This document shows, in pieces, positions 8,814 through 60,871 of a stretch of DNA of 64,000 bases. Source of the stretch: Felis catus. Taxonomy: Eukaryota. The stretch covers positions 66,342,001-66,406,000 of the forward strand of contig NC_058368.1 in NCBI RefSeq assembly GCF_018350175.1, in the 5' to 3' direction. The translations under genes were made by a program, and so were the position numbers. The notes below the pieces were generated by a model. It worked only from the letters and a program-made list of their open reading frames with translations, was not told the DNA's origin and made no database searches. The stretch's first letter is position 1. Each line of letters begins with the position of its first letter.

Positions 8814-9300
8814 AATAAAAAGAGAAACAAAGACACAGAGGTTTTAAGATCTGCCCAGTGACGAAGGAGCCAGAACAAGAACCCAGGTTTCTTATTTTGA
8901 TCCAGGATTTATGTCCACCAAATTTTCCCACCTGCCTGTCTTAGAAAATACAGCATCGTTCCAGACTGAAGCAGGATCTGCTTAACAGCCTATCCTGGTT
9001 CAGCGAGTAAGAACGGTCCACACTGTGGAGTGCTTTGGAATAAACAAAGGGTTTCCACGTATTGTACCTGGTTTTTAAAACTTGAAACAACTGGAGGCAG
9101 CTGTTTGATGTTTCCCTTGAAGAGACTGCCAGTGCCAGCTTTCTGTTTCCCAGGGGCCTGATGCTATAATCCTCTTGGTGTCTGTGATGTCTCTACTGCC
9201 ATCAAAGGTCAAACAAGAGGTACACAGGCATTTTAGTGGGTTTACTGCTATTTTGTCTCTTCTTTGTTACTCACAGTACTTTCATAACATCCTCCCTCTG

Positions 9301-9634
9301 AAAAAAAAAAAAGAAGGTAGAGAAAGAAGGAGGGAGGGAGAGAAGGAAGGAAGGGAGGAGAGAAGGAAGGAAGGGAGGAGAGAAGGAAGGAAGGGAGGAG
9401 AGAAGGAAGGAAGGGAGGAGAGAAGGAAGGAAGGGAGGAGAGAAGGAAGGAAGGGAGGAGAGAAGGAAGGAAGGAAAGAAGGAAGGAAGGAAGGAAGGAA
9501 GGAAGGAAGGAAGGAAGGAAGGAAGGAAGGAGAGAAGAAAGGAAAGGAAGGAAGGAAGGAAGGAAGGAAGGAAGGAAGGAAGGAAGGAAGGAAGCAGAGA
9601 ATGTAGGTAGGTAGGAAAAGAAAGAAAGGAAGGG
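9301..9634. repeat. Polypurine tract: 20-bp minisatellite (agaaggaaggaagggaggag)x6 plus (GGAA)n
   Basis: Six exact 20-mers at 9341-9460 followed by GGAA runs. Confidence 0.95.
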
Positions 9635-10811
9635 ATTTTGTTTTCTGATATGGCTATTTGGGATTCCCAAATAGCAACTTTGCAGAATTCCATGATGAAG
9701 CCTGGAGGAGAGCTTTGCTCACTCAAAGGGAGGTGAAGAAAAGATTTGGGAGGAGGGGTGGGTCTGGATGATCACCACCATGAGTGTTTCCAGAATGTTA
9801 AGTCAACTATCCTCCTAAATTTGCTTTCTGTTACGTTGCTGGGATATTCTCAAAGGCTGCTGACCACGGGGGTTTGGGATTCAAGATCCTCACGTTGTAA
9901 GTTTTTCCTATATACAATAGTAGTTTGAGCAAGTAAATTATATTTGATTGAATTGATGATTAGGAGTAAAAGCTATGGCTCTATTGATTTAAAATGATAA
10001 GAAACTTTCAGCACATTATTTAAATGCTTGTGGGAATTGTACAAAGTCCCTCCAGGATTACAGACTTTTTGTTATAAGCCTTATTAGATACTTTTGTCTT
10101 CCGTGCCCAAATCATTGCATTATCTTGAATTGTGGTCATCAATTTTTTAGCCCTTTTGAGTCACCGTGATGCAGGCAGGACTGTGATTTAGCCGGAAACA
10201 CCAAAGTCATGTCTGGCTGTGGGCTGGCTCGTGCCAACTCTAAAAACAAGACTGTGTGTTCAGGTAAGTAAAGCAAGATGCAAATGAAGTCAGAGGTCTG
10301 ATCCTTAAAAGTGCTGGCCAAGGCCTCTTTCCTCACCATGAACTTGGACCACCCTCCTCAAGAGGGTCACATGAGGACCCAATGAGACAGCACTGAGCCA
10401 AAGTGCAGATTAACCATCACTGCGAGGGAAAAACAATTCAAAACATTTGCTCTCAGGGATCCTTAGGGTTGCAGGTACATTGAAGTCCATCTAGTCCAAT
10501 ACTCTCACTTTGCCAACGAGGACCCTGGCATCCAGAGAGATGATGTGGCTGATTTGAAAACCACATCGGTTCAGGCTGAGATATTTTTTGCTTCTCAAAC
10601 TCCATTAATTCAAGTGATACATCCAGTAATGTGTCCTTCAAAATAACGTCATTCTGGTTGTAGTAAGCCCATATAGAGAATACAGATCCATATGTATTCT
10701 AGAATAAAGAAAAGCCACAAAATTACAATCACAAAGAGAAATAAAGTAAAAATGAACGTGTTGAATTCACTGTCACAAAAAAAAAAGGTGGATCTTTTTT
10801 TTTTCCTCTTC

Positions 10812-12124: not shown

Positions 12125-12344
12125 TTTTTTTTAAAGTTTATTTATTTATTTTGAGAGAAACAGAGAGAGAGAGCTCGTGCGAATCGGGGAGAGGTTGGGG
12201 GTGGGGGAGAGAGAGAATACCAAGCAGGCCACATTGTCTGTGCAGAGCCCAATGGGGGGCTCGATCCCACGATCTGTGAGATCATGACCTGAGCCAAAAT
12301 CAAGAGTCAGGCGCTTAACAGACCGAGCTCCCCAGGGCCCCCCC
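12125..12344 (-). mobile_element. CAN-SINE, older feliform subfamily
   Basis: Antisense tail tttatttattttgagag; antisense head gagatcatgacctgagccaaaatcaagagtcaggcgcttaac. Confidence 0.92.
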
Positions 12345-12353
12345 ATGCACAAC

Positions 12354-12566
12354 TTTTTTTTTTCAACATTTATTTATTTTTGGGACAGAGAGAGACAGGG
12401 CATGAACGGGGGAGGGGCAGAGAGAGAGGGAGACACAGAATCGGAAACAGGCTCCAGGCTCCGAGCCATCAGCCCAGAGCCTGATGCGGGGCTCGAACTC
12501 ACGGACCATGAGATCGTGACCTGGCTGAAGTCGGACGCTCAACCGACTGCGCCACCCAGGCACCCC
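12354..12566 (-). mobile_element. CAN-SINE, young SINEC_Fc
   Basis: Antisense young-type consensus; flanking duplicate cacaacttttt (12348-12358, 12571-12581). Confidence 0.97.
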
Positions 12567-56669: not shown

Positions 56670-56890
56670 AGTGTGGTGGTGAAGAGTAACAATTCTGAAG
56701 CCTACGCTTGAATTTGAGTCTCATGTCCACCGTTTACTACATGTAGGGCAAGTTTCCTCACCTCTCAAAGACCCCGTTTCCCATTTGCAAAAGGGCGTAA
56801 CGATAATATGTCAGCACCGACAGATAATATGTCAGCACCGACAGAATCGAGGATTGCGTGTGAGTGCCTTAGCCCAGTGAAAGCTCACAG
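56670..56890 (+). mobile_element. MIR SINE containing a 21-bp tandem duplication
   Basis: gtggtggtgaagagt...gggcaagtttcctcacctctc...gtttcccatttgcaaaa; gataatatgtcagcaccgaca twice at 56802-56843. Confidence 0.7.
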
Positions 56891-57126
56891 TCATCTCCCA
56901 GCTGCTTTGAGTCAGTCACTGCCCTGTGCTGAATTCAGCAAGTCTCTTAAATATCATGTGCCCTGACAACAACGTCTCACTTCTTTTCCCAACTTTCCAT
57001 TATTTTTAACTTTTTCAAACAATACTGAAATGGCTGAAGACAATAAAATGAACATCCATATGTTTCTCATGTGGACTCAATGATAATTGATTTTTCTCTT
57101 TTTGCTATTTTCAAGTAAGTAAAAAA

Positions 57127-57997
57127 CAAAGTCACAGGATACAAAATCAGCGTACAGACATCGGTTGCATTTCTCTACACCAATGATGAAGCAACAGAAA
57201 GAGAAATCAAGAAATAAATCCCATTTACAATTGTACCAAGAACCATAGAATACATAGGAATAAACCTAACCAAACATGTAAAAGATCTGAATACTGAAAG
57301 CTGTAGAAAACTTATGAAAGAAATTGAAGAAGACACAAAGAAATAGAAAAACATTCCATGCTCAGGTATTGGAAGAACAAATATTGTTAAAGTGTCGATA
57401 CTACCCAAAGCGATCTACACATTCAGTGAAATCCCAATCAAAATTGCACCGGCATTCTTCTCAAAGCTAGAGCAAACAATCCTGAAATTTGTATGGAACC
57501 ACAAAAGATCCCAAATAGCCAAAATGTTGAAAAAGAAAACCAAAGCGGGAGATGTCACCATCCCAGAGTTTAGCCTCTACTACAAAGCTGTAATCATCAA
57601 GACAGTATGGTATTGACACAAAAACAGACACAAAGAACAATGGAATAGAATAGCGAACCCAGAAGTGGACCGACAAATGTATGGCCAATTAATCTGCGAC
57701 AAAGCAGGAAAGAATATCCAATGGAAAACAGACAGTCTCTTTAGCAATTGGTGCTGGGAGGACTGGACAGCAACATGCAGAAGAATGAACCTGGACCACT
57801 TTCTTACACCATACACTAAGCTCAAAATGGATGAAAGACCTCAATGTGAGACAGGAAATTATCAAAACCCTAGAGGAGACAACGGGCAACAATCTCTTTG
57901 ACCTCAGCCACAGTAACTTCTTAAACAACACGTCTCCAAAGGCAAAGAAAATAAAAGCAAAAATGAACTATTGGGACCTCATCATGATAAAACCTTC
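57127..57997 (+). mobile_element. Felid-type L1 ORF2 internal fragment (end of RT domain and downstream region), disrupted
   Basis: Translates to KVTGYKISVQ...[38 protein letters not shown]...[12 protein letters not shown]...MYGQLICDKAGKNIQWKTDSLFSNWCWEDW with stops and frameshifts. Confidence 0.95.
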
Positions 57998-58014
57998 GAC
58001 ATAAATCTTTTTTA

Positions 58015-58237
58015 TTTTTTTTTAATTTTTTTTTCAACGTTTATTTATTTTGGGGGGCAGAGAGAGACAGAGCATGAACGGGGGAGGGTCAGAGAGAGGG
58101 AGACACAGAATCGGAAACAGGCTCCAGGCTCTGAGCCGTCAGCCCAGAGCCTGACGCGGGTCTTGAACTCACGGACCGCTAGATCGTGACCTGAGCCGAA
58201 GTCGGACGCTTAACCGACTGCGCCACCCAGGCGCCCC
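58015..58237 (-). mobile_element. CAN-SINE (SINEC_Fc), left arm of inverted pair
   Basis: TSD gacataaatctttttta (57998-58014, 58238-58254). Confidence 0.98.
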
Positions 58238-58265
58238 GACATAAATCTTTTTTAAAAGCAAAGAT

Positions 58266-58471
58266 GGGGCGCCTGGGTGGCGCAGTCGGTTAAGCAGCCG
58301 ACTTCGGCTCAGGTCACGATCTAGCGGTCCGTGAGTTCAAGACCCGCGTCAGGCTCTGGGCTGACGGCTCAGAGCCTGGAGCCTGTTTCCGATTCTGTGT
58401 CTCCCTCTCTCTGACCCTCCCCCGTTCATGCTCTCTCTCTGTCTCAAAAATAAGTAAACATTAAAAAGAAA
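58266..58471 (+). mobile_element. CAN-SINE (SINEC_Fc), right arm of inverted pair
   Basis: TSD tttaaaagcaaagat (58251-58265, 58472-58486). Confidence 0.98.
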
Positions 58472-60871
58472 TTTAAAAGCAAAGATAGTCTCCTACATAA
58501 ACACAATACCATGATTACACTTAAGAATATTATTGGTAATTCAATAGTATCATCTACTGTCTATTTTGTATTCAGAAGTCACCAACTGTCTCAAAACTCT
58601 TTCTCAAACTGAGTACTTACCTCTTCCAAATCATGGATTCAGTAAAGGTCCACACATAGCATTAGGTTGTTACATTTTTAGTTTCTTTTCATGTAGAACA
58701 GTCTTCTTGGCTTTTTACAATTTTACCTCTTTTGAAGAGTCAAGGCTGGTTGTCTTATATTATATCCCACACACTGACTATGCCTGACCATTTATTTATA
58801 GTGTTACTTACTTTGTCCCTGTATCCCCAGTATTTCCTGTAAACTGGATTCAAGTTAAATATTTGGGACAAAACCATTTTTTGAATGAAATTATCAGACA
58901 CCAGTCCTTAGATCATCCTTTCTGCTCTTTGATTTTGCTAATCCCTTTGTTTTTAGCGATCATTCCATCTTGTCAGTCTCTTCCGTCTTTTGTCTAATCT
59001 GGCAATTCTGTACAGATGGGTATGAAAACAGTACCTCTGTCTTCCTATTCATGGACCTTCTGCCGAGCCTTCAATGAAGAGCCTATGCTTTAACTGGTGC
59101 CAGGAGTTGAAATTGTCAGAAATCAGAATAAACTCCAGACAGATAAGTTCTAGAAGAGGGTCATGTTTTCCCTGTGGTCCCCAACAGAGTATTTGGATGA
59201 GAGTCCTGCAATGTGACAGAAGTTAACTTTCAAAACCTCTCGGTGGCACAGATGCAAAACATTTAATACTCAGGTATTACCAGTATTTACTAACATTACA
59301 GCACTACGAATGTAACACTGGACAAATGGTAAATATAGCTGGCAAGTATGTGCAAAAGTTAATTTGTCCTGGAATGGTTCGTGTGGGAGGCAGAGAAAAG
59401 GCACTGCTGTAAATTCCCTATTTGACCCCAGCCCTTTGTTCCCATCAGATTTATATAACGAATTAGGATTCACTGTTACTTCAGTAACGCATTTTTTACT
59501 AACAGTTCTTGCTAACATAAAGCGTCGCTCACTGTCGTGTGCACTTAAATTTCCAGGAAGAAAATTTAAAAAACGACTCAGATCTGGAGCTACAGCAAAG
59601 TGGTCACATACATTATTCAGAAATAAAAATAAGAGACGACAAGAAAGTATTTCTCAACAGCGTAGGGATCGAAACACTTGCTTGGTACTGAAAAAAAACC
59701 CAACTGCCATCATTCGGATATTCTTTGGAATCAAAGGCATGTGCGTCCCTGGTGGCTAATAGGGTCCCTTTTTTCCAACTTGTCTGCATCGGCATCCTTG
59801 GGCTGGAAGTGAATTGGCTGATGTTTCCGTGCAGAATGTTAAAATAGCATTTACATCTCTCGTTGCTGTTTTGCTGTTATGTCCACCGATCGCACGGTGG
59901 AAACGCCTGGCTCCTGAAATGCCAGAGTGAACACGACCTGATTACAAAATGTCCTGTCACGACTCAGAGAGGGCCCACATGCTCCTCACTTAGCCAGATA
60001 CAGCCCATCTCTGCTCCCGCCTTTCCGACATAAGTGCACACCGTGGGACCACACGATTTTGTGTTAGCTAGACTGTCTGTGGCCTTGTAGCAGATTGGGG
60101 CAATTAAATCTATTTTCCCGATCAGCATTCACTGAGCACCTACCTTGTGCTAAGATGTGTGTGATCAACTCGTCCCGGTTTGCCAGGACCTCCTGGTTTT
60201 AGCGCTGCAAATATGGTGTGTCCTAGAATTCCCCCGTGTCCCAGGCAAACTGGAGTGATTGGTCACCTGGTTCATCTAAGCCCTGAGGATGACAAGGTGG
60301 AGCCCCGTCCTTGCATCAAGAAGCACGTGGTCTTAGGGTCAGAAAAGCAAGCCAATTACAAAAGCTTGGAGTAATCAGTACTTAGAATCATGAACAGGGC
60401 ACTGTGGACACAGAGAGTTGAATCCAGCTAACTGGGAGGCCAGACATTCCTCCTTGAAAGAGACAATGCTTGAGTGGGGTTTACAGAATGAGCAGCACAA
60501 CATACACGGCTACATTTTGAAAACCTCAAAAGAGGAGATACCTGTGGGATGTCATGCCGTCTTAGACTTTCTCTGTCTCAAAATACATATGTTTGGTTCA
60601 GATTCCCACAGTGTAAAGGAGGGATTTTTAGCATTAAGTAAGCAGAGGAGAGAATGGTCATTTCTGGTGTACTTTATTCTGGGACAGATACACCTGACAG
60701 TACTTTAGTACTGAAGCTAGTGATAGTTTTCTGAATTAGTGGTGAATATGTAATACCTGGTGCTTTTTCTGGGATTTGTGTTTGAGAACAGTCAGAATGA
60801 GTGGCTAAGGAGTGTCCCAGGTTGCAAAGGTTAGGGACACCCATGTGGCACCTTGTGGAACAAATCAAGTG

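Follow-up and report, generated by a model that had tools for sequence, protein, structure and literature searches.

In the 64,000-nt stretch of cat DNA analysed here (hereafter, the window), we identified two felid CanSINEs arranged head to head, the left one on the minus strand (58014-58237) and the right one on the plus strand (58266-58474), the bodies of which are almost perfect reverse complements of each other. The two elements probably arrived by separate insertions and were subsequently made alike by patchy copying between the arms in both directions.

When reverse-complemented, 58069-58237 agrees with 58266-58434 at 167 of the 169 positions; only a single dinucleotide, at arm positions 31-32 (58207-58206 in the left arm and 58296-58297 in the right arm), fails to match. 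The arms are separated by a spacer of 28 nt. Near-exact inverted arms with a spacer of this length had been claimed in a sequence-only reading of the locus and are borne out here. The bodies, which we take to be homogenised, occupy arm positions 1-169 in each element (58069-58237, minus strand, and 58266-58434, plus strand) and are followed by 3' ends that are not homogenised: on the left, 58014-58068 (minus strand), consisting of a young-type tail (58035-58068) and an A-tail (58014-58034), and on the right, 58435-58474 (plus strand), consisting of an older-type tail with changes of its own and a short, interrupted A-tail. Among the 25 longest of the 96 inverted pairs in the window, this pair is the most complementary, and the runner-up in similarity among the SINE pairs tested matches at 166/171 positions. 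The other neighbouring SINE pairs in the window (four direct and one inverted, 2.2 kb apart) are 70-97% alike. Close spacing is also found in a direct pair that is not homogenised, a tandem of a young and an old SINE on the minus strand (12125-12566, ~15 nt apart), in which 114/162 positions are alike.

Both elements were assigned to felid CanSINE subfamily II by their full-length likeness to other copies, the CT-rich region and the AATAAA tail, the match to the tRNA head being weak (left body, 58148-58232, 15.2 bits, E 4.2). A BLAST search of the window with the right element gave 15 matches, both arms included. Nine other copies were aligned, and the counts below use the seven closest (four young and three older), with the two most diverged omitted; over the full length, each element of the pair matches these seven copies at 84.5-95.2%. 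The subfamily names are taken from PMC4084570 rather than from a comparison with Repbase or Dfam consensus sequences. Like the felid CanSINEs IIA and IIB as described there, both elements carry A-tails and target-site duplications (TSDs), and they align over the full length with the other SINEs of the window, but the body of the pair fits neither subtype, combining the box-A base of IIB with the extra T of IIA.

Each element is flanked by its own perfect TSD, as the exact matches confirm and as had been proposed from the sequence alone. The maximal exact matches are 57997-58014/58237-58254 for the left element and 58251-58265/58472-58486 for the right element, with an overlap of 4 nt within the spacer. 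When reduced to endonuclease-consistent cores, the two TSDs, of 16 nt (16/16 matching) and 12 nt (12/12), tile the 28-nt spacer exactly. The outer copy of the left TSD (57998-58013, plus strand; 16 nt, or 17 nt with 58014) is identical to the inner copy (58238-58253, plus strand), which forms the first 16 nt of the spacer and has T6 at its end; no further exact copy of this sequence occurs in the window. The inner copy of the right TSD (58254-58265, plus strand) forms the last 12 nt of the spacer, with A4 at its start, and is identical to the outer copy (58475-58486, plus strand; 12 nt, or 15 nt counting 58472-58474). The junction 58253/58254 is a T-run/A-run site (T6/A4) on both strands and fits the L1 endonuclease consensus, which we took from PMC3215922. 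The perfect TSDs, the T-run/A-run site and the 3' A-tails (58014-58034 on the left, and up to 58474 on the right) identify each element as an L1-mobilised insertion. As far as can be read from the sequence, this anatomy demonstrates two insertions at one site, that is, one palindromic site used twice, once per strand, by the two elements, a feature that the sequence-only reading had overlooked. The other TSDs in the window, found for 5 of the 7 copies, are 12-17 nt long, so that two abutting TSDs total ~30 nt. The separate TSDs and tails rule out a single insertion followed by inverted duplication, and the direct order of the TSDs rules out inversion of the spacer. No empty-site joint was found among the 15 joints listed.

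The identity between the arms ends sharply at arm position 169. Past this point, the left and right tails differ by 6 substitutions and 1 gap (7-8 events) in 34 columns, compared with 2/169 in the bodies (Fisher p 3.2e-4 for substitutions and 5.9e-5 for events, values that are optimistic because the body/tail boundary was picked after the data had been seen). Six young-young pairs used as a control show the opposite pattern, with 0-1/33 differences in the tails and 6-14 events of 170-172 in the bodies; the tails in question are therefore not simply hypermutable. A bounded tract of excess identity between separately derived copies, the mark by which homogenisation is recognised, is present at this locus, with the reverse pattern in all six control pairs. 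As the sequence-only reading had also claimed, the two elements differ in tail type: at tail markers 184 and 203, the left tail has the bases of 4/4 young copies and the right tail those of 3/3 older copies. In 34 columns, the left tail is 3 events away from three young copies, 4 from the fourth and 6-8 from the older copies. The tail of the right element is the more decayed, suggesting that this element was probably the earlier insertion.

The body shared by the two arms is a mosaic, of the young type at arm position 17, of the older type at 41/44, of the young type again at 52-101 except 100, and of the older type at 139/149, which requires at least three switches between the types. This confirms the mixture of young-type and older-type diagnostics that had been noticed in the arms. 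According to PMC4084570, a G in box A is specific to subtype IIB (SINEC_Fc1), and an extra T separates IIA (SINEC_Fc2) from IIB; both arms carry the IIB-specific G (arm position 17) and the extra T (44) at once, the mapping of these positions being our own. The arms are not of subtype IIB, for they carry the box-A G yet also the extra T, where IIB is taken as the subtype without the extra T from the 4/4 window copies that bear the G; nor are they of subtype IIA, since arm position 17 is G, not T, in both.

The arms also share alleles that set them apart. Both have A at arm positions 58 (58323/58180) and 77 (58342/58161), alleles that occur in 0/9 other copies. The A at arm position 74 is a CpG-decay allele present in 2/7 other copies, and the CG at 100-101 combines the C of the older type with the G of the young type. 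Of the shared variants said in the sequence-only reading to be unseen elsewhere in the window, those at positions 58 and 77 thus stand, that at 74 does not, and CG at 100-101, possibly carried by up to 4.6% of the SINE reads described below, does not either. The further remark that many CpGs are kept proved marginally true, with 13-14 in the arms, 11-13 in the four young copies and 6-11 in the three older ones. We dropped the idea that CG100-101 was rebuilt from two decayed forms, because those ≤4.6% of SINE reads may carry CG. Nor do we claim GC-biased repair, for which the bias is not significant: by a hand tally of sites, 8/10 of the young/older differences went to G or C (p 0.11), or 8/13 when the three shared A alleles are included (p 0.58).

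The frequency of these alleles was assessed in one raw, single-cell RNA run (X23), in which SINE reads were aligned at 92% likeness, so that the shares are weighted by expression; they were taken from raw reads rather than contigs, as contig ends undercount differences. Position 58 is C in 12,998/13,564 reads (95.8%), leaving at most 4.2% for A, and position 77 is C in 13,532/13,728 reads (98.6%), leaving at most 1.4% for A. T at 17 makes up 1,331/11,101 (12.0%) and A at 41 makes up 9,571/10,819 (88.5%); because these shares sum to 100.5%, there is little room for the G17+G41 type of the arms, barring doubly counted copies. The shares of T100 and A101 add up to 95.4%, so a minor type with CG at 100-101 may exist, weakening that part of the mosaic. 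In the scanned sequence collections, no felid SINE was found: a conserved SINE motif gave 0 matches in viral contigs and 30 in metagenome contigs, 0/30 of which were SINEs.

Taken together, the separate TSDs, the different tail types, the end of the identity at 169, the mosaic and the rare alleles support the order of events put forward in the sequence-only reading, that is, two separate insertions and later homogenisation of the bodies. Two L1-driven insertions occurred at the single T6/A4 site, one per strand and head to head, with the right element coming from an older-type source (IIA-like tail) and the left element from a young-type source (IIB-like tail). We infer, with good support, that non-reciprocal copying after the insertions then erased the differences at arm positions 1-30 and 33-169. 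This copying, for which the evidence argues strongly, would have proceeded in both directions and in at least four patches, halting before the CT-rich tails and leaving the spacer unflipped; its direction, number and timing are read from seven window copies and one RNA run, at one locus. Because the arms are only 28 nt apart, the likeliest route, by our guess from this geometry, would be intrastrand fold-back, in which a polymerase switches template or mismatches are repaired within a hairpin of single-stranded DNA. Break-induced non-allelic gene conversion is an alternative route that would leave an identical trace.

Homogenisation could instead have been coupled to the second insertion, the new cDNA pairing with the SINE already resident 12-16 nt away, or taking it up as a new template, in a single episode, which we consider unlikely. 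Such coupling agrees with the one cut site common to both elements, with the loss of identity ~34 nt into the tail, the part in which reverse transcription begins, and with the separation of the arms by one dinucleotide only. However, a plain template switch would yield a body of a single type, yet the arms are a mosaic of both types, and the G17+G41 combination is rare in reads. Furthermore, young copies in the window differ by 6-14 events, so that arms made equal at insertion should have drifted further apart if the left element is anything but very recent, whereas the left tail is already 3-4 events away from the young copies.

Both elements could also descend from a common source, a rare element or a small subfamily in which the body was mosaic and the two rare alleles were present from the start, with the tails diverging afterwards, but this is decidedly unlikely. 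It is plausible that a stepwise intermediate existed between the two subtypes; IIA still yields species-specific insertions according to PMC4084570, and up to 4.6% of the reads may have CG100-101 and up to 1.4% A77. But the tails differ at 184 and 203 along the young-versus-older divide and by 7 events in all, compared with 0-1/33 for tails of the same subfamily, and two draws of a ≤1.4% type at one site would be needed; that the body mosaic and the two alleles are rare in reads argues against such a source as well. A genome-wide subfamily with the same variants was the first alternative that the sequence-only reading had named: the X23 reads reveal no sizeable one, with room for a type of up to ~1.4% of reads. 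An intermediate subfamily of a few percent may exist, which would speak against copying between the arms.

Reads of 4 of the 24 runs were aligned to 58182-59021. In X1 and X9, DNA runs from different studies, a 65-nt contig covers 58216-58280 with 0 differences (2/2 runs); it comprises the whole spacer plus 22 nt of one head and 15 nt of the other, which is below our 31-letter bridging rule. The right tail is joined to the unique flank in contigs that start at 58449 in X1 and 58448 in X9, with 2 and 0 differences, respectively, over 573-574 nt. Other animals have both the head-spacer-head junction and the right tail. Among the contigs listed, up to eight per run, none spans the arm interior without differences, SINE interiors being fragmented. 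The loop contig (58216-58280) has a depth of 44.9 in X1, where the flank has 21.5, and of 14.3 in X9, where the flank has 39.7; this unevenness may reflect hairpin drop-out, polymorphism or noise. On the flank, an A-to-G difference at 58742 occurs in X1 and X17 contigs and is absent in X9, which is probably an ordinary polymorphism; the X17 contigs there have a depth of 1.7-7 and may be DNA.

An assembly or polishing artefact, the second alternative named in the sequence-only reading, is excluded at the level of architecture by the junction and right tail matching the window in 2/2 DNA runs. A milder version, in which the pair is real but the reads of the arms were mixed and the bodies made to look identical, is very unlikely. 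Hairpins do disturb sequencing, the depth of the loop contig is uneven in X1 and X9, and the arm interior lacks confirmation among the contigs listed from other runs; yet arms of the young and the older type would be ~10% apart in sequence, and their reads would map apart, whereas foreign SINE reads would bring in alleles that are common, as opposed to the rare ones present in both arms, and the mismatch at 31-32 has been retained.

The inverted arms fold into a hairpin with z-scores of ~-40 (RNA) and ~-41 (DNA) against shuffled sequences, which merely restates the repeat. The apex of the hairpin (58214-58289) scores 51 bits on the Rfam model mir-3473, under the gathering threshold of 71.8, and is not assigned to that family, the consensus of which is a 23-bp stem with a 30-nt AU-rich loop. 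The mir-3473 stem presumably resembles the head of the rodent B2 SINE, and the family may itself be a head-to-head pair of rodent SINEs; among the papers listed in our literature search, none ties mir-3473 to head-to-head B2 SINEs. In X23, the depth over 58490-59021 is 0 in 1,934 million letters (~1% of the run, one tissue, no matched DNA). Among 134 of the 151 open frames of at least 75 aa (the 17 in SINEs or tandem repeats were omitted), the Pfam search gave one sub-cutoff match, which we judged to be due to chance, and none of the 92/92 exon-like frames in the window matched Pfam, results that leave room for short or non-coding exons. Judging from these searches, the locus displays no sign of function. 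That selection kept the stem perfect for a role in a transcript, as an ADAR substrate or a microRNA-like precursor, is scarcely credible: the fold is very stable and the apex reaches 51 bits on mir-3473, but that score is under the threshold and models of this kind give a score to any long hairpin, X23 has no reads on the unique flank, the window has no Pfam-supported exon, and private variants in both arms need a copying process, not selection alone.

Several known systems resemble this locus in part. Cook et al. 2011 (PMC3215922) report that human head-to-head Alu pairs are enriched at spacings of 24-36 bp, mostly 27-30 bp, and their supplement gives 28 bp as the commonest spacing. They take the peak as an effect of insertion and propose either nucleosomes or binding of the endonuclease at the Alu 5' end. 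The cat pair belongs with this class in having full-length adjacent elements, tails that point outward and a 28-nt spacer, within the 24-36 bp range. The class was defined for Alu, of which the felid CanSINEs are an analogue; moreover, the spacer of the cat locus resolves into two abutting TSDs, and the term 'gene conversion' does not occur in the main text of PMC3215922.

Conversion between neighbouring Alus is described in PMC8230782 and PMC3670932, which cite Aleshin and Zhi 2010: as at the cat locus, neighbouring copies have common non-diagnostic variants, an effect that those accounts give as strongest at short distance. The cat case differs in being near-complete over 169 nt, two-way and between subfamilies, in a carnivore and at a single locus. 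For hairpins and template switching at inverted repeats, we draw on PMC2603318 and PMC8604942. In the system described in PMC8604942, template switching homogenises the arms of inverted repeats, and the close inverted geometry is the same, but the repeats are short, lie in yeast genes and can have their spacer inverted, whereas the cat arms are 169 nt long and the spacer is uninverted. Retrotransposon recombination-mediated inversion (Lee et al. 2008, PMC2603318) likewise involves inverted copies that interact and yield chimeric elements; its hallmark as given there, mismatched TSDs, is absent at the cat locus, where the exchange appears non-reciprocal, and this process is ruled out because each TSD still matches its partner and the order is direct. 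Among dog SINEs, inverted pairs that lie close together and are nearly identical are reported to be rare or depleted (bioRxiv 10.1101/2020.10.27.358119), which does not account for the survival of the cat pair.

Next to the pair, we observed a decayed fragment of L1 ORF2 (57120-57997, plus strand, start approximate) with stops and frameshifts, which is probably older than the pair; its segment 57617-57898 resembles residues 891-959 of human ORF2p (E 2.8e-20). The fragment, which has neither a 3' end nor an A-tail beside it, runs right up to the outer boundary of the left TSD and may be the product of an endonuclease-independent insertion or of a deletion. Elsewhere in the window, we found an exact direct duplication of 142 nt (7740-7881/7886-8027, 146 nt from start to start), an exact 21-nt tandem duplication (56802-56843) and a compound tandem repeat array (9271-9642) with spacings of 8, 12 and 20 nt.

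To conclude, we regard the pair as a clean case of a known process, SINE-SINE homogenisation, in a known spacer class of head-to-head elements. Tentatively, head-to-head pairs with spacers of 27-30 bp could be a general mammalian class, in which a palindromic L1 site is reused and the spacer is the sum of the first and second TSDs, and the members of which escape deletion and evolve in concert, possibly from the second insertion on, giving near-perfect mosaic hairpins of 150-300 bp. Our literature searches did not bring up this account of the spacer peak, which Stenger 2001 or Aleshin and Zhi 2010 may contain. If true, such a class of reused sites would explain the 27-30 bp Alu peak, which is left open in PMC3215922 as far as its text was available to us, and a spacer made of two TSDs is a simple and testable account of that peak. 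Furthermore, should conversion make close inverted pairs more alike, their identity would be unusable for their dating or subfamily assignment, and such loci would be candidates for fragility or for the production of long dsRNA.
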